Shown: positions 1,709 through 17,962 of the stretch, one piece after another
Position numbering within the stretch: position 1 is the first letter of the stretch
How the letters are laid out: each line of letters starts with the position of its first letter
From: Clostridia bacterium
Lineage (GTDB): Bacteria; Bacillota; Clostridia; Acetivibrionales; DSM-27016
Assembly (NCBI GenBank): GCA_026414765.1
Contig: JAOAIJ010000016.1
Span: forward strand, 6,786-38,785
DNA: 32,000 nucleotides
Direction of reading: 5' to 3'
Made by a program: the position numbers and the translations under genes
The notes under the pieces: model-generated
Seen by the model: the letters and a program-made list of their open reading frames with translations, nothing else
Databases searched by the model: none
Told to the model about the DNA's origin: nothing

Positions 1709-1755
1709 GACTACGGATCAGAAGGTTGTGGATTCGATCTCTGCCGGGCGCGCCA
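1709..1755 (+). repeat. Direct repeat copy 1: 3' 47 nt of tRNA-Arg(ACG), an att-type site, not a functional tRNA
   Basis: GA-CTACGGA-TCAGA-AGGTT-GTGGA-TTCGATC-TCTGC-CGGGCGC-G-CCA. This reads as anticodon loop with ACG, 3' anticodon stem, variable loop, T arm, 3' acceptor strand, G73 and CCA. From memory it matches the Firmicutes tRNA-Arg(ACG) 3' half. The upstream sequence is AT-rich, with no GCGCCCG 5' acceptor strand or D arm. Confidence 0.85.
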
Positions 1756-1952: not shown

Positions 1953-2914
1953 ATGAAACAACGAATCAGTATGGCAAAGTTTACGCCAAATAAGACGGTG
2001 AAAGACGGTTATAAGGAATTTATCACGTCATGCAAGGTGAAAAACCTTTCCGAGCAAACAATATTTTACTACGACAAGAATATGAAGATATTCGAGACGT
2101 TTCTTGAAATTCAGGAAATATCGCTTATTAAAGAAATCGACCTGACTGTTGTCAACGAGTTTATTCTCTATTTGAAAGCCCTTGGCACTATGAATGATAT
2201 CAGCATCAATACCGTAATACGTGCAATAAGGGCAATTCTTTACTACTTCCAAAAGCTTGGCTACTGTAAGCCGTTTAAAATAGGTCTCATAAAAGCGGAT
2301 AAAACAATAAAAGAGACGTATACCGACCACGAGCTAAAGCTGCTGCTGGTAAAGCCCACGATGGAACAGTTTGCCGAATACAGGGATTGGGTAACAATTA
2401 ACTTCCTATTAGCCACGGGCGTGAGGGTTGGAGAATTGGTAGGCATCCAGGTAAAGGACGTTGATTTCGAGGATTCGGTGGTTAAGGTGAAACGTGGTAA
2501 GTCAAGGCGTGAAAGACATATACCCCTGTCTAAAACAATCACGAAGGTTCTAATGGAATATATCAGTGTACGCCAATGCAGCAGCGAGGACGATTATTTG
2601 TTCTGTAATACCTTTGGGCAGAAGCTGACGGAGGACTTATGCAAGCACTCCGTATTGAGATACAACCGTGCCCGTGGCGTTAATAAGACCTCACTGCATT
2701 TGTTCCGGCATACCTTCGCAAAAATGTTTATCTCAACGGTGGCGACGTATTTAGGCTGCAAAAGATTTTGGGGCATAAAAGCATTGATATCGTCAAGGAA
2801 TACGTGAATATGTTTACTAACGATTTAAAGGAGAATTTCGATGATTTTAACCCGTTGGAGAGTATAAGTAAGGGGAAAGGCAGCTACATTGATATGAAAA
2901 AGTTTAAACGGTAA
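1953..2914 (+). pseudogene. Tyrosine recombinase (phage-type integrase) disrupted by a 1-nt deletion near 2735
   Basis: The ORF 1953..2807 carries the Arg box (ATGVRVGEL) and HLFRHTF, then turns into nonsense (STVATYLGCKRFWGIKALISSRNT). From 2735 the -1 frame reads NGGDVFRLQKILGHKSIDIVKEYVNMFTNDLKENFDDFNPLE...KR-stop (stop at 2912-2914). That is the canonical C-terminus, including the catalytic-Tyr motif. Frame arithmetic fits a single missing base in TCA(A)ACGG. Confidence 0.8.
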
Positions 2915-3108: not shown

Positions 3109-3292
3109 CAGCGAGTTCTAAGATAAAGCACCTCTCACCCACGGGGGACTACCCCCTATTCTTTCGTTAAATAAGTGCTTCGACCGTAAATAATATATTT
3201 TGAAATCTGCGACTATAAGCCTTTGATCAAATCCGACCGGAATAACAATACATTAGCGATGCCCCGATGTTCCAAACCCTTTGTTTATCATA

Positions 3293-3467
3293 GGGACAAA
3301 TCCGTCACCACGAAGGGACAGTTCTGTCACCACGAAGGGACAATTCTGTCACTACCGAAGGGACAATTCTGTCACTACCGAAGGGACAATTCTGTCACCA
3401 CCGAAGGGACAATTCTGTCACCACCGAAGGGACAATTCTGTCACCACCGAAGGGACAATTCTGTCCC
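3293..3467 (+). repeat. Iteron array: 7 contiguous 22-23-bp direct repeats plus a terminal half unit
   Basis: Unit starts are 3293, 3315, 3337, 3360, 3383, 3406 and 3429, with a partial unit at 3452. Consensus is GGGACAATTCTGTCACCACCGAA. Each unit holds the small palindrome GACA-ATTC-TGTC. There are no spacers. The array is followed by AT-rich ATTAACTATAACCATATAACTATA. Confidence 0.9.
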
Positions 3468-3868
3468 ATTAACTATAACCATATAACTATATCCAATTAA
3501 ACTATACCTAATAACTAAACGAAAAGAGTTATAAAGACCTACGGACTAATATAGGGTAAGGGCATAGATAAACCGTTTTCTATTTATAATAAAGCGATAT
3601 TAAAGACTTTAAAAAGCATTGTCCTAACTCGGGTCGCCCCTGCCCCTTTCGGAAATGGGATGACTCGTCCGTGACTTTCTAAAGCACGCATAAATGTTAT
3701 GTAAACTCATTCGTTCAAAAACGCCCCTATTTCCGATTTAAGGACAAGTGTAGTGGTTGATATTTATCCGTGGCTAAAGTATCTTAATACGCATTATAGG
3801 GCTTACGTTAAAGCCTAATAAGAACATTAAACCACCTCGCCACAATAATCGGAAACCGGCGAAAGGCA

Positions 3869-4269
3869 ATGAAGAATTTACAATGGTTTATAGGGAACAG
3901 GTCGCCAAGTTCGTTTTGATAGCGAGAAACCACTAACCGATAACGAAAAAGCGTTCTTGTTCACCATGCTGCAGTTTTAGGATATAAAGGCGTAATTAAT
4001 GCACCGGAAAAAGTGGTGTGCATAATGGGCCTGAACGTTACAAGAGCAGGAGAAATGATGGGCTGGAAGCATCCTGACCCATTAACAAGGTGCTGAAGTG
4101 TTTGCAAGAGAAGGGTATAATCAAACTTGTCGACAAACGTTCGAAATATATTGTTCCTAATATGCTGGTATTCTACCGTGGGAGTACAGACAAGCGTAAC
4201 GCTCCGTATAATGAATATGGAAACCTAAATGTAAAGCCATCTGGTGGGGGAGGAAAAAATATTAGATGA
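3869..4269 (+). pseudogene. Decayed replication-initiator-like (winged-helix, RepL/RepA-like) gene
   Basis: No intact ORF. Fragments in different frames read ...PLTDNEKAFLFTMLQF-stop and ...LQEKGIIKLVDKRSKYIVPNMLVFYRGSTDKRNAPYNEYGN... The second fragment is homologous to the 7680..7907 fragment. Relative to that copy there is a 1-nt deletion (GACCCATT versus GACACCATT). The family assignment is a guess from the wHTH-like C-terminus and the neighbouring iterons. Confidence 0.5.
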
Positions 4270-4298
4270 AGGTATTCTGTTCCTTCATTAATAGACAG

Positions 4299-4329
4299 GC
4301 GGTGAGTGCTGATACTCTCGCCTTTTTTA
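4299..4329 (+). terminator. Rho-independent terminator after the rep-like pseudogene
   Basis: GGCGGTGAGTGCTGATACTCTCGCC followed by TTTTTT. A homologous copy lies at 7914-7944. Confidence 0.55.
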
Positions 4330-4588
4330 GTTTATGGTATTAGTTTAGCAAACGGCTGTATGTTTAAAATATATAGATCGTCAACGTCATTGTTAATATA
4401 TGGAGAAACTATTCGGTTTTTCATAAAACATATCAACTACCCTTTATTATAAAAAAATCCAATATTTGCAGGAAAATAAATATTTTCGTCGAATTTAATT
4501 AGTGATTGTGTGTTAATTATACCCAACAATGTAAAATTTATTATGGTGGTTATATGATATAAATGTTTTAAGAAAAGAGGTATTTGCT

Positions 4589-5752
4589 ATGGCTAAGGAA
4601 AAGGTTGTTCAGCAAACTGAATTAGTTGAAAAAGGACAGACAAAAGCTGAAGAGAATTCTAGTTCCCAAAAGAAAAGAGTTAAAATATCTCAAAGCGACA
4701 TTCCACGATTTAGTATTGAAAAGTCTCTTGTTGTCGCTAAAGCCTTATGGGATGAATTTGCGGGTAAAAGTGCTGAGCCACATATGATTGCAATGTCGTT
4801 AAACTTTACTCCCTCAAGTGGTCATTGGAGAAACCTTACTGGCTCTTCTATTGCCTATGGATTAACTGAGGGTGGTTATAACTCTTCCGAGATTGCCCTT
4901 ACACCACTGGGTAAAGCTATAATAGCTCCCACATATGAAGGCGAGACAGAACAAGCCATTATCGAGGCAGTTTTAAAACCTAATATAATAAAAGCATTTT
5001 TTGAAAGGTATAATAAAGCAAAACTTCCATCGCAAAATATAGCACAAAATGTATTAATATCGATGGGAGTGCCGAAGGAAAGAGCAGAAGAAATTTATGA
5101 CCTCATTTTAGAAAACGGCAAGTACTCTGGTATTATTAAGGATATAAAAACTGGGTTTTTTATTGCAATTAGTCCGAGTACTCGTAATAATGTAAGCCAG
5201 GTGGCGGAGGAAGAACCTGAATTGTCGCTAGAACAAGATGAGGAAGTCGAAATAGAGAGTTTTGCTAGAAAAATATCAGCACAACCAGAGCCGAAACCTG
5301 AAGTGATTACTGGTGCTATTGTTAAAGAGAAAAACAATAAAGTTTTTATATCTCACGGAAAAAATAAGCAAGTTGTCGATCAACTAAAAGAGATCATTAA
5401 ATATGGCAAGTATGAGCCTGTAGTTTCTGTAGAAAACGAAACGCTATCTAAACCAGTTCCAGATAAGGTTCTAGATGATATGCGTTCCTGTTTTGCTGGC
5501 GTGATTAACGTACATAGTGAGGGCGAGTTACTTGATCCTGAAGGAAAAAGACATATAAAGATTAATGACAATGTGCTTATTGAAATAGGAGCTGCTATGG
5601 CTTTGTTTGGTGGGAATTATGTTCTATTGGTACAAAAAGGTGTCCAGCTTCCGTCTAATTTGCAAGGATTATACCGGTGTGAATACGAAGGGGATAAATT
5701 AGATTTTGAAGCTACTATGAAGCTACTAAAAACTTTTAATCAATTCAAATAG
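4589..5752 (+). CDS. Two-domain protein: unknown N-terminal domain, acidic linker, then a C-terminal TIR-like domain of the CAP12/PycTIR (predicted nucleotide-binding TIR-like) type
   Basis: AAGAGG Shine-Dalgarno precedes the ATG. The C-terminal roughly 135 aa read KVFISHGKNKQVVDQLKEIIKYGKYEPVV...NVLIEIGAAMALFGGNYVLLVQKGVQLPSNLQGLYRCEYEGD. This matches, from memory, the VFIVHG...NVIFELGYF...V.LPSD..G pattern of that family. Confidence 0.7.
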   Translation: MAKEKVVQQTELVEKGQTKAEENSSSQKKRVKISQSDIPRFSIEKSLVVAKALWDEFAGKSAEPHMIAMSLNFTPSSGHWRNLTGSSIAYGLTEGGYNSSEIALTPLGKAIIAPTYEGETEQAIIEAVLKPNIIKAFFERYNKAKLPSQNIAQNVLISMGVPKERAEEIYDLILENGKYSGIIKDIKTGFFIAISPSTRNNVSQVAEEEPELSLEQDEEVEIESFARKISAQPEPKPEVITGAIVKEKNNKVFISHGKNKQVVDQLKEIIKYGKYEPVVSVENETLSKPVPDKVLDDMRSCFAGVINVHSEGELLDPEGKRHIKINDNVLIEIGAAMALFGGNYVLLVQKGVQLPSNLQGLYRCEYEGDKLDFEATMKLLKTFNQFK

Positions 5753-5920
5753 AGTATTTTTATAGGGTCACTAATAAGCATTTTTTAGAGAAGGATTCGT
5801 TACATAAACGGATCTTTTCTGTTGTTAATGAAATAAACATTCAAGATAAAGCATAAAGATTTGCAATTTTAGGGAATGAGCCTTTGAAATATGCTATAAT
5901 TATTTAAAAGAAGGTGTAAC

Positions 5921-6400
5921 ATGAATATATACCTTGATATGAACGTTTACTATCGCCCTTTTGACGACCAAACGCAGCCTAGAATAGAACTTGAGTCAAA
6001 GGCGATAGAAATAATATTTAAGCTTATTGAACGGTGGCAATATAAAGTGCTTTGGTCTTATATGTTAGACTTTGAAAACGATCGGACGTCATCAAAGGAA
6101 ATGAGTGAAGATATAAAAGTAGTCGCTGAGATTGTTTGTTCGGAAACCGTTGTATGGAATGAAGCTATCGGTATAATGGCTAAAGAAATTGTAGAAAAAT
6201 CTAATGCTCGAAGTAAGGATGCTTTACATCTTGCGTGTGCAATATACGGAAAATGTGAATACTTTATAACATGTGATAATCGATTTATCAGAACAATAAA
6301 ACATAATGAGCAGGCCTTAAAGCACGTATTAGGTTCGATTAAGCTAATGAACCCCGTAGATTTCATTGGGAAGGAGCTGGAGAACGATGTTAACGAATAA
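5921..6400 (+). CDS. PIN-domain protein (putative toxin ribonuclease)
   Basis: GAAGGTG Shine-Dalgarno. The N-terminal IYLDMNV, the central acidic residues and the C-terminal ALHLACAIYGKCEYFITCDNRF fit the four-acidic-residue PIN signature. Confidence 0.75.
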   Translation: MNIYLDMNVYYRPFDDQTQPRIELESKAIEIIFKLIERWQYKVLWSYMLDFENDRTSSKEMSEDIKVVAEIVCSETVVWNEAIGIMAKEIVEKSNARSKDALHLACAIYGKCEYFITCDNRFIRTIKHNEQALKHVLGSIKLMNPVDFIGKELENDVNE

Positions 6401-6614
6401 AAATAACGATATGACCGATGCTGAAATTATAGAAAAGGCTAATAAGGCGATAATAAAAGAGCTTGGTGTTTCCGGGTATATGCGGTATTTACGACTGAGA
6501 CAGCCGAATAACGATGGTAAGGATTATGTAAAAGAGCAGGAAGAATTATATAAGGATTTATCTGTTGATGAGTTGTCTCAGATGGCTCGAAAGCATTGGG
6601 AGAACACGAAATAA
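6387..6614 (+). CDS. Small (75 aa) protein translationally coupled to the PIN gene; candidate antitoxin or partner
   Basis: The ATG at 6387 overlaps the end of the PIN gene (GAACGATGTTAACGAATAA) and is preceded by GGAGCTGGAG. The ORF track's longer start at 6366 lacks a Shine-Dalgarno. No family recognised. Confidence 0.5.
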   Translation: MLTNKNNDMTDAEIIEKANKAIIKELGVSGYMRYLRLRQPNNDGKDYVKEQEELYKDLSVDELSQMARKHWENTK

Positions 6615-6672
6615 TGTTACCATCAACAGTAATAAAATACCGTTGAAAGCCGCCCTTTACCGATGTACAATA

Positions 6673-6770
6673 AAACTATACAAAAACGGTAATCAAATTG
6701 AATGCGTTGACACAGATAACGGTGAAATCCGCTCACTCTGCGGATTTGAAGGACGTTAATGGTGGGTCGG
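6673..6770 (+). repeat. Conserved element-end block, copy A, directly upstream of the tRNA-derived core
   Basis: AAACTATACAAAAACGGTAATCA...GCGTTGACACAGATAACGGTGAAATCCGCTCACTCTGCGGATTTGAAGG... recurs at 11244-11337 with scattered substitutions. Weaker similarity extends back to 6636 / 11185 (AATACCGTT). It contains the hairpin AAATCCGC-TCACTCT-GCGGATTT (6725-6747). Confidence 0.7.
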
Positions 6771-6817
6771 GACTACGGATCAGAAGGTTGTGGATTCGAT
6801 CTCTGCCGGGCGCGCCA
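6771..6817 (+). repeat. Direct repeat copy 2: 3' 47 nt of tRNA-Arg(ACG), an att-type site
   Basis: Identical to 1709-1755 over all 47 nt. The preceding bases (GGTGGGTCGG) cannot form the 5' anticodon stem, D arm or acceptor strand. Confidence 0.85.
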
Positions 6818-6823
6818 AATGCG

Positions 6824-6866
6824 AAAACCCTACAGTTTCAAGACTTGTAGGGTTTTTATTTTTTTT
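6824..6866 (+). terminator. Rho-independent terminator after repeat copy 2
   Basis: AACCCTACA (6826-6834) pairs with TGTAGGGTT (6846-6854) and is followed by TTTATTTTTTTT. Confidence 0.8.
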
Positions 6867-7117
6867 GTAAGATTTCTGACCAAAGGGTAGTCAGATGATT
6901 GTTGTTTTTACTGGAAAGTAGGTTTTATGCGGATTATTGGACTTTGACCATAAATGATCAGAGTGATCAAAACCTACAAAAGGTAACGTCATAGTTTGCC
7001 AATTTTACACTTTTAGATTATAATGTGGCTAAAATTAATATACATTTGTTTGAAACTATGAATTAATGGTTATTATGTAATTTCGCCAATAAATAGGAAT
7101 TTATAGAGGACAACACA

Positions 7118-7621
7118 ATGCAAAATGAAGCAAAATTGATTATACTAAGAGGAAATTCTGGAAGTGGAAAATCTACAACAGCAAAGATGTTACAAAGAAA
7201 ATTTGGTAGAGGTACTTTAGTAATACCTCAAGATACAATAAGGCGTGAAATGCTATGGGTAAAAGATGAGAAGGGTACAAAAGCTATTCCACTGCTAATT
7301 GGACTAGCGAAATATGGAAAACAAAATTGTAACATTGTTATTGTAGAGGGAATTTTATATTCTGATCTGTATATGGAACTATTCGAGATGTTAAAGTTAG
7401 AATTTAACAATATATATGCATATTATTATGACATAACGTTTGAAGAAACTTTAATTAGGCATCAAACAAAGCTGAATCGCAATCAATTTGGAGAAAATGA
7501 AATGAAGCGTTGGTGGAGGGAAAGAGATTATATAGGTATTATACCGGAAAAAAGTATAACCAATGAACTAAGCTTAGAGGAAATTGTACAAATGATTTTT
7601 TCAGATGTTATGAGCAAGTAA
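7118..7621 (+). CDS. Small P-loop NTPase/kinase (AAA_33 / zeta-toxin-like kinase fold)
   Basis: AGAGGA Shine-Dalgarno. Walker A GNSGSGKST near the N-terminus. 167 aa, a typical size for small nucleotide or small-molecule kinases. Confidence 0.7.
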   Translation: MQNEAKLIILRGNSGSGKSTTAKMLQRKFGRGTLVIPQDTIRREMLWVKDEKGTKAIPLLIGLAKYGKQNCNIVIVEGILYSDLYMELFEMLKLEFNNIYAYYYDITFEETLIRHQTKLNRNQFGENEMKRWWRERDYIGIIPEKSITNELSLEEIVQMIFSDVMSK

Positions 7622-7679
7622 TATCCAATTTATGGTTGAGATACTCCGTACTCTTTATAAAATACAAATGATAGGCTAG

Positions 7680-7907
7680 AAGCATCCTGACACCATTAAC
7701 AATGTTTTGAAGGGTTTGCAGGAGAAGGGTATAATTAAGCTTGTCGGCAAACGTCCAAAATATATTGTCCTCAATCCATTGTTATTCTACCGTGGGAGTG
7801 CAGGAAAGCGTATAGCTGAGTATAATGAATATGAAAAACTTACTGCTAGACCAACAGCAGAGGTTGAAGAAAAAGGATTGCATAATGGAACAGAATACCT
7901 CCATTAA
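7680..7907 (+). pseudogene. 3' fragment of the same rep-like gene as 3869..4269
   Basis: Reads KHPDTINNVLKGLQEKGIIKLVGKRPKYIVLNPLLFYRGSAGKRIAEYNEYEKL. The DNA aligns with 4066-4225. An in-frame TAG at 7677-7679 sits where element 1 has TGG (GGCTAGAAG versus GGCTGGAAG). Homology stops at about 7665, just after the kinase gene. Confidence 0.55.
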
Positions 7908-7913
7908 TAATTA

Positions 7914-7944
7914 GGCGTTGAGTGCGTATACTCTCGCCTTTTTT
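7914..7944 (+). terminator. Rho-independent terminator, homolog of 4299-4329
   Basis: GGCGTTGAGTGCGTATACTCTCGCC followed by TTTTTT. Confidence 0.55.
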
Positions 7945-8042
7945 ATTCCGACCGCTCGTGCTTAAGCTGTACGTATACTCATTTTTGAGTAATAGGGGAA
8001 AGAATGCCAAAATAAAGTCTGCAAACCCAGTAATAGTCCATA

Positions 8043-8102
8043 GTGACAAATCCGTCCCTTTGAGGTGACAAAACTGTCCCTACGTGGTGACAATTCTGTC
8101 CC
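8043..8102 (+). repeat. Relic iterons: three degenerate 22-bp units related to 3293-3467
   Basis: GTGACAAATCCGTCCCTTTGAG / GTGACAAAACTGTCCCTACGTG / GTGACAATTCTGTCCC, followed by the same ATTAACTATAACCATATAACTATA tail as at 3468-3491. A further degenerate pair lies at 8292-8329 (GGGACAAATCATCCCTGGCGTG / GTGATAGAATTGTCCC). Confidence 0.7.
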
Positions 8103-8494
8103 ATTAACTATAACCATATAACTATAGCCATTAACAATAACCGTATATATAATATTTTAGAATACTAAATGGATTACATAGAAGCAAAACCGCTAAAATC
8201 CCATGAGGTAAATATCTACCTATCCGTGAGGTGAACACTTATCCATGAGAAACAACAGCAACAAAGTATCATAAACTCTATATAACCACCGGGGACAAAT
8301 CATCCCTGGCGTGGTGATAGAATTGTCCCATCATAAGAACAATGCTATTCTATTGATAAAGATAAAATTATCCTATAGTGAGATAATGTATAATGATTAA
8401 GTCAAAATTTATTGCAAATATTTAATGATTAGCTTAAAATCTAGAGTAATTAATGAGTTATAGTTGTTTATAAAGGTAGGTTAAAATTAAGATT

Positions 8495-9463
8495 ATGAGC
8501 CATTTATTAATATTTTTGCATTTTATTTCATTCACCACAGGCATCGGACTAATAGCCTTGATTTACTATTTCAACAATAGATATAAGAACAAAACTGCAA
8601 GGTGTGTAATTTTAGTTGATATATTTTATACCTTTGTCTTGTTTATGGATACTTTGGATTTATACTTTCGAAAAAATTTTGAGTATTACCCCATAAGTAT
8701 TCATAAAAGCATTACTATTTTATTATATATTTTTAGTATCGTGGGTTTGTATTTTTTTTCATTGACAATACATTATATAACAGACAACCAATTATCAAAG
8801 TCGAAAATGGTGTTTTTTGTATTCTTATTTTTAATATTTGTTGGTGGGGTTGTATGGGAACTTTTTTATACATTCTCACTTATTTCAATCAGTATAACTG
8901 CGAAATTTGTTATTTTTACATTGAATATAATTTTAATCATTAATTTATTGCTAATATTCAGGGGGATAGATAAGATAAAAAAGGAACTAAAACCATTAGT
9001 TCTTTCATGTTCAATTTTTATTTTGTTCTCAATTTTATATTCTTTTCTAATCAATATTTTTAATAATTTACCTCTATTCTTTTACAAGGTTCCGATTTCC
9101 CCAGTCGTGTACTTTTATGTAAATTTAGCCGGAATTATATATGTAAAAAAGTATATCTTTGCAATGAATGAAAATGAAAAACAGGTCAACGATATAGTAG
9201 CTTGTTATGATTATATAAAGCTATATGATTTCAATAAATTAGCAATATCATATGAATTAACTGAAAGAGAATTGGAAATAGTCCGGCACATTGTCGATGG
9301 ACTTAGTAACCAGGATATTGCTAAAAGATTGTTTATATCACCAAATACAGTAAAAAATCACATTTACAACACATATAAAAAAATTGGAATAAAAAACAGA
9401 TTTGAACTTATAAGTTTGCTATCCAAAATGAAATCTGAATCTAAACTTAATAATCAAATATAA
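8495..9463 (+). CDS. Membrane-embedded LuxR/GerE-family transcriptional regulator (polytopic N-terminal domain plus C-terminal HTH)
   Basis: About 6-7 hydrophobic helices in residues 1-215. The C-terminus LTERELEIVRHIVDGLSNQDIAKRLFISPNTVKNHIYNTYKKIGIKNRFELI is a textbook LuxR-type HTH. Confidence 0.8.
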   Translation: MSHLLIFLHFISFTTGIGLIALIYYFNNRYKNKTARCVILVDIFYTFVLFMDTLDLYFRKNFEYYPISIHKSITILLYIFSIVGLYFFSLTIHYITDNQLSKSKMVFFVFLFLIFVGGVVWELFYTFSLISISITAKFVIFTLNIILIINLLLIFRGIDKIKKELKPLVLSCSIFILFSILYSFLINIFNNLPLFFYKVPISPVVYFYVNLAGIIYVKKYIFAMNENEKQVNDIVACYDYIKLYDFNKLAISYELTERELEIVRHIVDGLSNQDIAKRLFISPNTVKNHIYNTYKKIGIKNRFELISLLSKMKSESKLNNQI

Positions 9464-12274: not shown

Positions 12275-13240
12275 ATGAATGACCATATAGAGGTTATTCA
12301 TATTGACCGTAAATCGGAAAATCTCCTAAGTTACATAAAACTTAATAAAGAAACCTACGCAGTCATTGACCGTAATACAGGAGAAATCCTTGAAACTAAA
12401 GAGTACAAGCTTAATGAGAACAGGGCACAAAATACATCTGGCTTAAAACGAACTATGAAAAACATCCGCGATTTAATTAATAACAACTTTACAGGTGCAA
12501 ACAATGAGCTTTTCTTAACCCTAACCTATCGCCACACTGATGGTAAGCCAATGACTGACGTAAACAAGGCCTCAAGTGATTTTGAACATTTTATTAAGAG
12601 GTTCCGTCGTAAATGTCGTAAATTCCCTGACATTGAATACATTGCCGTTTTAGAGCCTCAGGAGAGCGGTGCTTGGCATTGGCACTTACTGGTGATGTTT
12701 ACTAATTGGACAAGAGATAGACAAATTAAGATAGATAACAATGCCGTTATTGAGCCACTTTGGAGACACGGTTTTACTAAGACAAAAGCACTAAATAACA
12801 ATGATAATATTGGTGCTTATCTCAGCGCGTATCTTACAAACGTTGAAATCAACGAGCAAAACAAAGACGTTGTTTTTAGTTCTGTGTATAAAAGCGGTGA
12901 GGAAATTGTAATTGCGGAGAAAGAAGTGAAAGGTGAGGCTGGCAAAAAAATAAAAAAGAAATTTATAAAAGGTGGCCGCCTGCATTATTATCCAAGCGGG
13001 ACCAATATATACAGATGCAGTCGAGGTATCAAAAAACCGACACCACAACTTATGATTTACTCCGAAGTTAGAGAAACAATAATTGGAGATAAAGTACCTG
13101 ACTTTGCTCGAACTATCGTAATTGAGGGAGAAATAAACGATGGCGGAATTACGCGAACTCTTAACACCATTACATACGAGCATTACAACCTAAAACGCAA
13201 GACTAAACTACAGACAATATCTTCTCAACCTACAAGCTAA
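12275..13240 (+). CDS. Rolling-circle replication initiator, HUH endonuclease superfamily
   Basis: Motif I FLTLTY (NELFLTLTYRH). The HUH motif WHWHLLV. A two-tyrosine motif Y-LSA-Y (GAYLSAYLTN) with the phiX174-like Y-x3-Y spacing. No obvious Shine-Dalgarno, so the start is uncertain. Confidence 0.7.
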   Translation: MNDHIEVIHIDRKSENLLSYIKLNKETYAVIDRNTGEILETKEYKLNENRAQNTSGLKRTMKNIRDLINNNFTGANNELFLTLTYRHTDGKPMTDVNKASSDFEHFIKRFRRKCRKFPDIEYIAVLEPQESGAWHWHLLVMFTNWTRDRQIKIDNNAVIEPLWRHGFTKTKALNNNDNIGAYLSAYLTNVEINEQNKDVVFSSVYKSGEEIVIAEKEVKGEAGKKIKKKFIKGGRLHYYPSGTNIYRCSRGIKKPTPQLMIYSEVRETIIGDKVPDFARTIVIEGEINDGGITRTLNTITYEHYNLKRKTKLQTISSQPTS

Positions 13241-14274: not shown

Positions 14275-14652
14275 TCAATTGATAGGGAAGTATATATCCA
14301 TATAAGTTACTCCATCAATTTCTATCACTTCTTCAAGCCAATATCGTTCCTTGTGGCAGGATGCTTTATATCCTTTATTATTAACTCATTCGACCAATGT
14401 TTTCCATCCCCTTGGAATAGTGTCAAAAGGGTTTGAGAATGGGTTTGTTATACGCAGCACTGCATACTTGCATCCTTCGACTTTCTTTAAAACCACAGGG
14501 ATATTGAATCCCATCTCAACGAACTCTATGGTATCGATGTATCTCCAACCCTGATATCTAAAATTACTGACCGTATACTCCCTGAAATCAAGGAATGGCA
14601 GAATAGAATGCTCAAAAGTATCTATTCTATCGTCTTTATGGATGCAATCCAC
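14275..14652 (-). pseudogene. GyrI-like / effector-binding-domain gene remnant with an in-frame TGA and a truncated 5' end
   Basis: The reverse strand reads ...RITNPFSNPFDTIPRGWKTLVE-TGA-VNNKGYKASCHKERYWLEEVIEIDGVTYMDIYFPIN-stop. The TGA (14386-14388) is in frame where Trp (TGG) is expected. The N-terminal part runs into the IS256 relic. Confidence 0.45.
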
Positions 14653-14945
14653 TATTCTGTATGTAAAGAAGGAATCGTAGTTAAAAAGGCCGTTTACATA
14701 GCCATAGGCATAGACCTGGAGAGCCAGAAAGATATCTTGGGAATGTGGATTGGAGAGGCTGAAAGCAGCAAGTTTTGGCTCAACATAATGAACGATATGA
14801 AAAATAGGGGTGTCCGTGATATACTAATAGCTTCTGTAGATGGTCTAAGCGGCTTCCCGGAAGCAATTAGAGCTGTAAATCCCCACACTGAAATCCAGAG
14901 GTGTATAGTTCACCAAATCAGAAATTCAACCAGATACATATCCTT
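14620..14945 (+). mobile_element. Internal fragment (about 110 aa) of an IS256-family (Mutator-type) transposase
   Basis: YSIVFMDAIHYSVCKEGIVVKKAVYIAIGIDLESQKDILGMWIGEAESSKFWLNIMNDMKNRGVRDILIASVDGLSGFPEAIRAVNPHTEIQRCIVHQIRNSTRY matches the conserved IS256 transposase core. The N- and C-terminal thirds and the inverted repeats are absent. Confidence 0.8.
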
Positions 14946-15023
14946 CTTCCCGTAACTGTCAAAGACCCGAGTACACACATCGCAATATTGATTGAAATAA
15001 ATCATATCATTCATAAAAGTGAC

Positions 15024-16705: not shown

Positions 16706-17611
16706 TTATTTTATTTCTTTTTTCACAATACTATTAGTATTAGGCACTTTTTGAATTTCATAAAAATTTATGGGATTTGAAATATATTTTTCTGCAAGTG
16801 ATCTATATTTCTCCCTATTTTCAGGAGGACATCTCAATCCAAAAACAATTTCCTTTATTGGAGCTGGAAGATTATAGCTGCCAGACTTTTCTTCTACATA
16901 TCTCCATTCATTTTCATATGACCAACAAGTCGGCTTGGTTGAAACAGCCAATTTAAATGTGGGGTCACTGAAAGAAATCTTATTTTTTGAATAAGGCCTT
17001 CCAAATTCATCAATATATATGGATAATTCGGAAATAAATCCATCACCTGTAAATTCGGGAAGAATATCAGAATAATTCACCTTGACACAATGATTAGCAT
17101 CTGTTAATTTAGTGTTCTTTTCGACAGAAAACCCTATAGCTATCCCTTTGGCGTCCTCAGCATAATGAGACCACATTAATTGATTTTCGCAAGTTTCAGA
17201 GAGGCTAAAAATTCCAACCTCATTAAGCTGCTTGTCAAACTCTGATATTGTTGCTTTCAAATCTGATGGATAATGGCCAGTCTTACTCTTTATAAACTCC
17301 CTGCACATCTTATACTTTTCTTCAAGACTCTTTTTCCTTCCTAATGTCTTAAGCATTGCCTTAACCTGATATGGTTTCATACCCCAAAACCCTTGATTAT
17401 TTGCTAAATGGTTCATTGCGCCCATTACAAGACCGGCAATTTGCGCTTGCATGCCTTCTTCAACCTGCTTATCAGTCCACTCTTTTGAGATTTCTTGCAT
17501 TGAACATTCAAAAGGGTCATTTAAGCCACTTGCATTTGAAAGCCATACTTTCTGGTCTAAGAATATTTTTTCAGTAAATTCTGTATTAGCTCTATACTTA
17601 TATAAAATCAT
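16706..17611 (-). CDS. DUF2971-family protein
   Basis: I prefer the start at 17611 (MILYKYR...), preceded by AGAGGGGA. The N-terminal YKYR...W.S....LNDPFE signature is characteristic of DUF2971. Confidence 0.7.
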   Translation of the reverse strand: MILYKYRANTEFTEKIFLDQKVWLSNASGLNDPFECSMQEISKEWTDKQVEEGMQAQIAGLVMGAMNHLANNQGFWGMKPYQVKAMLKTLGRKKSLEEKYKMCREFIKSKTGHYPSDLKATISEFDKQLNEVGIFSLSETCENQLMWSHYAEDAKGIAIGFSVEKNTKLTDANHCVKVNYSDILPEFTGDGFISELSIYIDEFGRPYSKNKISFSDPTFKLAVSTKPTCWSYENEWRYVEEKSGSYNLPAPIKEIVFGLRCPPENREKYRSLAEKYISNPINFYEIQKVPNTNSIVKKEIK

Positions 17612-17962
17612 TTTTCCCCTCTTATTAATATAGATTCTGGCATTTTTCAATATTTACTTCACATAATGAATGTACTGTAGCTAACATCAGTATACTAGAA
17701 TTTTTGGGAAAATAACAGCAAAATAAGTATTCCTGCATATCCCGCATATTGTGAATGGATCTATTAAGGCATAAAAATAGAACAATTGTTGGTTTTCTCA
17801 TTTATTTACAGTAAGTATACTATGTATATGGTTTAGGCTTTGTTACGGCAGGCTCTAAGCTATAGCGAATAAACTTATTGATAATCTGCGGACAAAAGCT
17901 GTATCGTAATGGCGGAGCCATATTCGGGCAAGGACTTTTATCTTTAGTAAAGAGGGACATAG

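Follow-up and report, generated by a model that had tools for sequence, protein, structure and literature searches.

The effectors with which the protein considered here is compared, built on a TIR domain of the CAP12/PycTIR type (Cap12/TIR-SAVED, TIR-STING and PycTIR), are switched on by a nucleotide second messenger that a partner enzyme makes. PycTIR, for example, senses cyclic UMP through a cyclic-nucleotide-binding domain and needs the gene for its cyclase, PycC (PMC11224242); in SfSTING, glutamate E84 of helix αC is catalytic, N80 lines the NAD+ pocket, and the neighbouring TIR domain completes the active site (PMC9402430). Here we describe a gene for a protein of 387 amino acids (aa) in a stretch of 32,000 nucleotides (nt) from a Clostridia bacterium (GenBank assembly GCA_026414765.1, contig JAOAIJ010000016.1, positions 6,786 to 38,785 of the forward strand; ‘the window’, in whose own numbering local coordinates are given), which appears to wire a TIR domain of this same type directly to a tandem winged-helix (wH) module. 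Judged from its sequence and from structural models, the gene is a candidate for a self-contained, sensor-plus-NADase abortive-infection protein, a reading for which we see the chances as evenly balanced. What would be new is best described as a putative single-chain, messenger-independent TIR effector with an undescribed sensor module, the TIR part itself being of the known PF10137 kind.

Beginning at the C-terminal end of the protein, we see that Pfam family PF10137 (CAP12-PCTIR_TIR) matches aa 251–367 over positions 1–118 of its 119-position profile, scoring 70.7 bits (cut-off 24.7; E 1.4e-19). No other TIR-family Pfam model matches, and the PADLOC model for ThsB is not among the matches either. 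The initial annotation, made from the letters alone, had taken the C-terminus to be TIR-like and of the CAP12/PycTIR type on the strength of the motifs VFISHG, NVLIEIGAAMALFG and VQLPSNLQGLY; all three are present in the translation and lie inside this full-length match. In an AlphaFold2 model of the full protein, built with 46 homologs (mean predicted local distance difference test score, pLDDT, of 82), the domain is predicted with a pLDDT of ~90 over aa 250–387, and a Foldseek search with it returns TIR-STING as best match (9lmq/7un8, E 3e-6 to 1e-5), followed at lower rank by the CMP N-glycosidase BcmB (E 7e-4), DNPH1 (E 1e-3), the TIR domain of SARM1 (5e-3) and MapSPARTA (8spo, E 0.013). 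As modelled, then, the C-terminus is a TIR/flavodoxin-like fold.

All 46 homologs are invariant at H256, G257, R299, N326, N328, E332, G334, P355, S356, Q359 and Y362. A check for the catalytic glutamate of TIR NADases, proposed along with the original prediction, leads directly to E332: in a profile search with the family, PycTIR (8jsj) is the sole PDB sequence found (E 0.0024), and E332 is aligned to the glutamate of its DNVHLEFG motif. The asparagine found four residues earlier, N328, gives the same spacing as E84/N80 of SfSTING; an equivalence drawn by sequence and motif alignment. We predict that the TIR domain is an NAD+ glycohydrolase.

The N-terminal part of the protein is of a different character. 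Modelled alone (aa 28–200) it reaches a pLDDT of 93.7 and a predicted TM-score of 0.87, and in the full-length model a pLDDT of 94–98 over aa 30–195; it is made up of two ‘H-H-H-strand-strand’ units, such that aa 41–196, in the models, are a tandem winged helix (helix-turn-helix with a β-hairpin ‘wing’). Among 22 members of the family no Pfam entry matches this module above threshold, the sub-threshold matches being DUF7226 (5/22), PFOR_II and AAA_assoc_C; a profile search finds no sequence relative in the PDB, and no PADLOC model matches the module alone. Foldseek likewise returns nothing significant (best E 0.03 in the PDB and 0.01 among the viral models of BFVD, with TM-scores of 0.43 or lower), the weak matches all being to generic winged-helix proteins: DtxR/SSo2273, the FokI recognition domain, SelB, STK19 and JetB. 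The tail that precedes the module is basic (family median pI 9.8, net charge +3) and has a low pLDDT before about residue 30.

The long acidic linker that the initial annotation had placed between the two domains is borne out, with a net charge of −7 and predicted disorder: its pLDDT is below 50 over aa 199–245, save for a short helix at aa 222–229 (nt 5252–5275) containing the sequence FARKIS, a [FIV]A[RK][RK][IV][SA]-like version of which is found in about half of the 46 homologs. We speculate that this helix may be a docking or autoinhibitory element.

The initial annotation had also treated the roughly 200-aa N-terminal domain as unknown, and suggested that it may be a new sensor acting directly on the TIR-like domain. 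The sensor role is a proposal; the domain is indeed uncharacterised, with no Pfam, PDB-sequence or significant structural match, but it is by no means confined to this gene. An exhaustive profile search covered 1.84 billion cluster representatives, and at least 2,535 contain the module (922 with an E-value of 1e-10 or lower). Sixty-nine of the best 150 representatives carry a TIR domain, many of these being cut at contig ends. Four others of the 150 have a Hanks-type Ser/Thr kinase after a similar linker (P0124, P0191, P0229 and P0240; Pfam Pkinase E 1e-19 to 1e-35), with P0124, P0191 and P0240 complete genes and P0229 stopping inside the kinase domain; the wH-kinase proteins are of 518–555 aa, and their loci (L084 and L087–L090) all lie on short metagenomic contigs. 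Several groups within the same 150 bear tails of only 60–120 aa, and two such short-tail variants are complete genes of 268–269 aa with no TIR domain (L085, 6001–7312, also L086; and L099, 1718–3063). One of the two is followed by a gene for a 170-aa DUF4145 protein, with an overlap of 8 nt, and the other by a gene for a 167-aa AF_1680-family protein, 33 nt downstream; no relatedness between these two downstream proteins is detectable (BLASTP E 1.2). With a short-tail variant and its small neighbouring gene, the same system may exist in a ‘split’ form, as sensor and separate partner. A weak match to PADLOC PDC-M34A (E 6e-6) is given by the tail of representative P0134.

A sensor or adaptor domain would be expected to recur in just this way, the one N-terminal module being combined with several outputs. 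Tentatively, and with rather more doubt than conviction, we can go further and suggest that the wH module is a new, widespread and portable sensor/adaptor of prokaryotic conflict systems, coupling one conserved trigger to a TIR NADase, a Hanks-type kinase, or a short tail with a small partner such as a DUF4145 protein; the gene described here would then be a member of a family, so far unrecognised, of TIR immune sensors that work as single proteins and independently of a messenger, in bacteria and archaea alike.

The family itself is extensive. More than 4,800 proteins match the 387-aa protein at E 1e-3 or better; setting aside an identical protein at NCBI (from a Clostridia metagenome-assembled genome, MAG, on a contig of 302,651 bp), the best 120 homologs share 50–68% identity with it, nearly all over more than 90% of its length, and all carry PF10137. 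Their sources include Brevibacillus, Halomonas, Stenotrophomonas, Deferrisomatales and the archaeon Methanoregula. Homologs from Brevibacillus, Methanoregula and Halomonas are among the closest (57–62% identity), while two from Clostridia MAGs reach only 46%; that the Clostridia MAG homologs are more distant than archaeal and gammaproteobacterial ones points to horizontal transfer. When one genome was scanned for each species, no fewer than 486 relatives came to light, of which 80 loci were kept for the analysis of context; these include Planctomycetota, Bacteroidota, Acidobacteriota, Chloroflexota, Actinomycetota, Pseudomonadota, Methanomassiliicoccales and Pacearchaeota. Mean pairwise identity amongst the 46 homologs is 71% for the TIR domain, compared with 59% for the wH module and 15% for the linker, the TIR domain being the more conserved of the two domains in 95% of pairs. 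Members of the family are already annotated automatically as ‘nucleotide-binding / TIR domain-containing protein’, and, going by these alignments, the wH-TIR architecture is that of a large, highly conserved family and is not unique to this gene.

In what settings are the homologs found? All seven of the contexts that we annotated are small variable islands, with the gene either inside or at the edge, and with mobile-element, toxin-antitoxin, restriction or helicase genes no more than a few genes away. In Brevibacillus (L091) the genes upstream encode HNH, PLD-helicase-DUF3427 and NUDIX proteins and those downstream Imm68 and DUF4303; in Methanoregula (L092) a PIN-ATPase gene lies upstream and a HepT/MNT pair downstream; in Stenotrophomonas (L093) Tn7-like TniQ/TniB/TnsB genes lie upstream and a HipA-like gene downstream; and in Halomonas (L094) the neighbours are a DDE transposase fragment, a BrnT-like gene and a DEAD helicase. 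The metagenomic loci have HNH-AP2 together with PIN-DUF4411 and Peptidase_M78 genes (L095/L096), type ISP restriction-modification genes 5 kb away (L097), or insertion sequence (IS) elements, a resolvase, HigB and MazE (L098). The Halomonas locus (Halomonas sp. SpR1) also has, immediately upstream of the homolog at 9037–9477 of L094, a gene for a 146-aa protein of the Nuc_deoxyri_tr3 (nucleoside 2-deoxyribosyltransferase-like) family, which belongs, like the adjoining TIR domain, to one broad fold superfamily; this is a single case.

Base composition is in keeping with a foreign origin of the gene: in 67 of 71 loci it has a lower GC content than the flanks beyond 3 kb (median −8.7 points; Wilcoxon p 9e-12), and in 55/71 the nearest 3 kb of the flanks are depressed too. 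The family behaves as solitary foreign cargo, with a weak to moderate association with known defence genes.

When open reading frames (ORFs) were clustered over the 80 loci, the largest neighbour family was present in 9/80, and at scattered distances. On this result we reject a conserved partner gene, or a multi-gene system. The initial annotation had seen no signalling partner nearby, and this proves correct on both scales: no cyclase (CD-NTases included), SAVED or cyclic-nucleotide-binding gene is present among the ORFs scanned, from 372 to 20,688 of the window, and no neighbour recurs in the homologous loci. The TIR gene is a stand-alone unit. It had also been described as followed directly by a PIN gene pair; the first of the two genes (5921–6400) does encode a PIN domain, but the small ORF that comes next (6411–6614) has no recognisable domain. 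One could imagine that the TIR gene forms a local multi-gene system with these two, for instance by signalling to, or cooperating with, the PIN nuclease: the genes are on the same strand, 168 nt apart and within the same direct-repeat-bounded element, and both Methanoregula and one metagenomic locus have a PIN gene only a few genes away from the homolog. The PIN genes elsewhere are of other kinds, however (PIN-T2SSE ATPase and PIN-DUF4411, the one in L095 on the opposite strand), and a terminator-like hairpin separates the two genes here. As no neighbour recurs in the 80 loci we reject the partnership, giving it hardly any weight, and regard the PIN neighbour as a local coincidence.

Equally improbable, in our estimate, is a Thoeris-like role, in which the TIR domain would make a messenger of the cyclic ADP-ribose type for an effector encoded elsewhere in the genome. 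Bacterial TIR domains can generate signals (bioRxiv 10.64898/2025.12.03.692087), and an effector in cis is in principle not needed. A recent atlas of TIR domains, on the other hand, puts PF10137 in a clade of its own, apart from those dominated by ThsB-type TIRs, and neither a ThsA-like gene nor any other neighbour recurs. Cap12 and PycTIR, characterised members of PF10137, are effector NADases, and Thoeris systems are operonic; both count against a signal-producing role.

Several observations weigh against the immune reading of the gene. Its NADase activity is deduced from family membership, and the TIR fold also matches N-glycosidases (BcmB and DNPH1, at E of ~1e-3). Identities of 45–68% across phyla are unusually high for an immune sensor. 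The core of the wH module is near-neutral (family median pI 6.9), a point against plain binding to DNA without specificity. In a scan of nearest neighbours, based on crude ORF calls and taking the one nearest ORF of at least 150 aa per side (135 neighbours in all), only some 6–9 (a raw proportion of ~5%) match PADLOC at E below 1e-5, as dGTPase, PDC-S15, AbiLii, HerA, mad8 and DndB. Many other nearest neighbours are housekeeping genes, such as those for aconitase, gyrB, ThiC and PDH E1, though so crude a scan counts too few toxin-antitoxin and mobile-element genes, to judge from the annotated contexts. Many defence genes are common on phages and plasmids; for this family, a tblastn search of 50,697 phage and 72,556 plasmid records gave no match with an E-value of 1e-5 or lower, and the 2.9 million viral contigs of IMG/VR yielded three loci only, one of them a Nitrobacter contig. 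Lastly, our literature search found no paper on the wH-TIR architecture or on the wH module. The suggestion that homologs should be enriched in defence islands thus receives a mixed answer: the island settings (7/7) and low GC content (67/71) speak for it, the ~5% of neighbours and the lack of phage and plasmid matches against.

Some of these points would suit a regulated nucleotide- or NAD-processing enzyme with no immune role, one that cleaves a nucleotide at its N-glycosidic bond like DNPH1, BcmB and MilB, or turns over NAD for signalling, and that is tethered by its wH module to DNA, RNA or a conserved cellular partner. The fold matches to BcmB (E 7e-4) and DNPH1 (E 1e-3), the very high conservation over bacteria and archaea, the many housekeeping neighbours, the lack of matches in phage or plasmid records, and the Nuc_deoxyri_tr3 gene directly upstream in Halomonas can all be read in this way. 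We nevertheless think it unlikely, since the best sequence and fold matches of the protein are to immune NADase TIRs and not to nucleotide hydrolases, its distribution is patchy and phylogenetically incongruent, it is GC-poor relative to its flanks, it is set among transposon, toxin-antitoxin and restriction genes (here within a decayed integrative element), and no metabolic operon partner recurs.

Turning to the locus itself, the initial annotation had presented the gene as cargo of an island whose mobility genes are dead, and so we find it: two perfect copies of a 47-nt direct repeat bracket an element of 5.1 kb, its integrase is frameshifted, and its replication gene is in remnants (coordinates in the table below). 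The repeat, which ends in ...GGGCGCGCCA, resembles, when parsed by hand, a tRNA-Arg(ACG)-like gene reduced to its 3′ half, with T-arm (GTGGA/TTCGATC/TCTGC), acceptor strand and CCA; the 5′ half is absent at both copies. We reject an intact tRNA or tmRNA at the repeat, ARAGORN and Rfam finding no RNA gene there. No third copy of the repeat was found in the window; the intact target tRNA may lie outside it, in which case several islands would follow one another in tandem at a single att site. The integrase region extends over 1953–2925, with the C-terminus bearing the catalytic tyrosine (...LQKILGHKSIDIVKEYVN...) in another reading frame, so that the gene is, as sequenced, a pseudogene, unless the frameshift arose as an artefact when the MAG was sequenced or assembled. 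Of the replication gene there remains a RepL-like C-terminal remnant with a hairpin (4053–4329); a second remnant and hairpin, 77% identical to the first, is found at 7666–7945, beside a collapsed second copy of the iterons (8039–8139) that lies 4.7 kb downstream. These duplications point, on sequence comparison, to two related and decayed replicative-integrative elements in tandem. The cargo of the element consists of the TIR gene, the PIN-domain gene and the small ORF without a recognisable domain.

A further explanation is that the gene is a selfish toxin or addiction gene of mobile elements, the TIR domain arresting growth upon stress or loss of the element, with the wH module and linker as a built-in antitoxin and no specific anti-phage role. 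Its position as cargo of a small integrative element here, with Tn7-like and IS elements adjoining homologs elsewhere, would agree with this, as would the frequent presence nearby of toxin-antitoxin genes (PIN, HepT/MNT, HigB, MazE, HipA-like and BrnT-like) and the scarcity of known defence neighbours. A single fused polypeptide cannot, however, offer the difference in stability on which classical addiction modules depend; the plasmid records, in which addiction genes are common, contain no match to the family; and the local mobility genes are dead yet the TIR gene is intact. The survival of an intact TIR gene amid dead mobility genes suggests selection acting on the host. We consider the addiction-gene explanation improbable.

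Returning to the reading of the gene as a sensor-plus-NADase abortive-infection protein, one can sketch how it might work. At rest the TIR domains would be held apart or occluded, an arrangement to which the acidic linker, with its short helix, may contribute. The wH module would bind a trigger that appears during infection or invasion by a mobile element; because the module is ~59% identical across phyla, this trigger is probably a conserved form of nucleic acid or a conserved protein rather than a fast-evolving phage protein. Binding of the trigger would lead to oligomerisation, and packing of TIR against TIR would then complete a composite active site, as it does in TIR-STING, TIR-SAVED/Cap12 and SPARTA; the model of activation through ligand-driven filaments is borrowed from the first two. 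Hydrolysis of NAD+ would follow, and growth would stop before the invader completes its cycle.

If this is true, the same TIR domain that elsewhere answers to a messenger has been wired directly to a wH module, with no partner gene: ‘messenger-free’ licensing of a TIR NADase. The trigger would be one recognised from Clostridia to methanogens, and its identity could therefore reveal a general cue of infection. The reuse of the wH module with a protein kinase offers a natural comparison for testing messenger-free licensing, and a single gene of 1.2 kb makes for a cheap system in which to do so.

Features of the window that bear on the TIR gene and on the element that carries it
Feature	Position	Strand	Remarks
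Left copy of perfect 47-nt direct repeat, att-like	1709..1755	+	0 chance matches expected
Tyrosine integrase pseudogene	1953..2807	+	Frameshift near 2745; Pfam Phage_integrase match spans only profile positions 17–140 of 172
About eight 23-bp iterons (CGAAGGGACAATTCTGTCACCAC), replication-origin remnant	3289..3488	+	Repeat families D1 and D3
Shine-Dalgarno sequence AAGAGG	4575..4580	+	8 nt 5′ of the ATG; read from sequence
TIR gene, 387 aa, ATG start	4589..5752	+	ORF list; intact; basic tail, tandem wH module, acidic linker and TIR domain
Lys/Arg-rich N-terminal tail, aa 1–40	4589..4708	+	Conserved KR..SQ.D.P motif; Q35 and P39 nearly invariant
Tandem wH module, aa 41–196	4709..5176	+	wH1 ~aa 41–112, wH2 ~aa 119–192; uncharacterised
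Acidic disordered linker, aa 197–249	5177..5335	+	Net charge −7, pI 4.4; family median net charge −6
CAP12/PycTIR-type TIR domain, aa 250–387, predicted NAD+ glycohydrolase	5336..5749	+	Pfam, Foldseek
Codon of E332, predicted catalytic Glu	5582..5584	+	NxNVLIEIG motif; invariant in 46/46 homologs
Terminator-like hairpin 3′ of the stop codon of the TIR gene	5790..5818	+	Consensus scan; sole such site in 4000–7200; count not above chance
PIN-domain gene, local neighbour	5921..6400	+	Pfam PIN, 29 bits; 168 nt 3′ of the TIR gene, same strand
Right copy of perfect 47-nt direct repeat	6771..6817	+	Closes the 5.1-kb element carrying the TIR gene

The TIR gene is intact, exactly as first called in the list of ORFs. 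It had been credited with a promoter region of its own and a good Shine-Dalgarno sequence, of which the latter is present; an AT-rich spacer of ~260 nt precedes it, and scanning this spacer for the consensus revealed no strong + strand promoter of the sigma-70 type. A promoter belonging to the TIR gene is plausible, and the gene is monocistronic in appearance.

Just outside the right direct repeat lies a gene (7118–7621) for a P-loop kinase, 167 aa in length, that belongs to the PRK06762 family (at 179 bits it exceeds the cut-off of one NCBIfam model); it is Zeta-toxin/AAA_33-like, with a weak match to PADLOC mad8. Zeta_toxin and AAA_33 have two members each among the 135 nearest neighbours of the homologs. 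The island region is flanked by a protein of 394 aa that has hydrophobic stretches and matches no family (372–1556, − strand) and by one with a hydrophobic N-terminal half and a C-terminal helix-turn-helix of the LuxR/GerE kind (8495–9463, + strand); both genes are very AT-rich, at 25–29% GC compared with 34–42% for the element. Further debris of mobile elements is found at 12275–13237, 14608–14952 and 16709–17650 (a REP_ORF2-G2P replication gene, a Mutator-family transposase fragment and a DUF2971 gene), and the first 17 kb of the window are a patchwork of such remnants.

How does the wH-TIR protein compare with systems already described? With PycTIR it shares a PF10137 TIR domain, the placing of sensor and TIR domain in one chain, and an alignment that takes in both the DNV..E.G motif and the L-PS...GL strand; it differs in having neither a cyclic-nucleotide-binding domain nor a cyclase, and matches the PADLOC model for PycTIR at E 0.017 only. 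With no Pfam match to a cyclic-nucleotide-binding domain or a cyclase in the protein or its neighbours, it falls outside the PycTIR branch of Pycsar. Cap12/TIR-SAVED and TIR-STING, effectors of type III CRISPR and of cyclic oligonucleotide-based anti-phage signalling systems (CBASS), have in common with it the TIR fold and the glutamate of helix αC with an asparagine four residues before, but they sense cyclic oligonucleotides, made by a CD-NTase or by Cas10, through SAVED or STING. Nor does the protein belong with Cap12 of CBASS, its scores against the NCBIfam Cap12 models being 17.8 and 12.3 bits where the cut-offs are 450, with no CD-NTase or SAVED gene among the ORFs of the window; and a place in Thoeris is likewise excluded, there being no ThsB match and no conserved neighbour.

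A further comparison is with PDC-S35, a single-gene, TIR-like ‘phage defence candidate’ that came, untested, from a guilt-by-embedding approach (bioRxiv 10.1101/2024.01.29.577857). All five PADLOC profiles for PDC-S35 match the linker and TIR domain (E 8e-11 to 3e-9). With a length of 231–278 positions, though, they mostly align with aa 220–384 only, the best pairing profile positions 59–220 of 231 with aa 225–384 of 387.

Hanks-type kinases resembling PD-T4-6 share with the wH-TIR protein the tandem wH module (E 1e-46 to 1e-75 against the module profile) and a similar linker; they differ in their output, a kinase, for which PD-T4-6 is the best PADLOC match (158–183 bits). The PD-T4-6 models also match a kinase gene in every S. 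thermophilus genome analysed, and in the model of that kinase, kinase-binding repeats follow the kinase domain (PMC11514479). For this reason we downgrade the match as evidence of defence: it shows a Hanks-type kinase, and not a defence function. An analogue in mechanism is SPARTA (short pAgo/TIR-APAZ). It is a two-protein, RNA-guided Argonaute complex, whereas the wH-TIR protein is free of Argonaute, APAZ and MID/PIWI domains, but in it a nucleic-acid sensor directly licenses the oligomerisation of TIR domains and the depletion of NAD+ with no second messenger, in the manner that we propose for the single chain described here.

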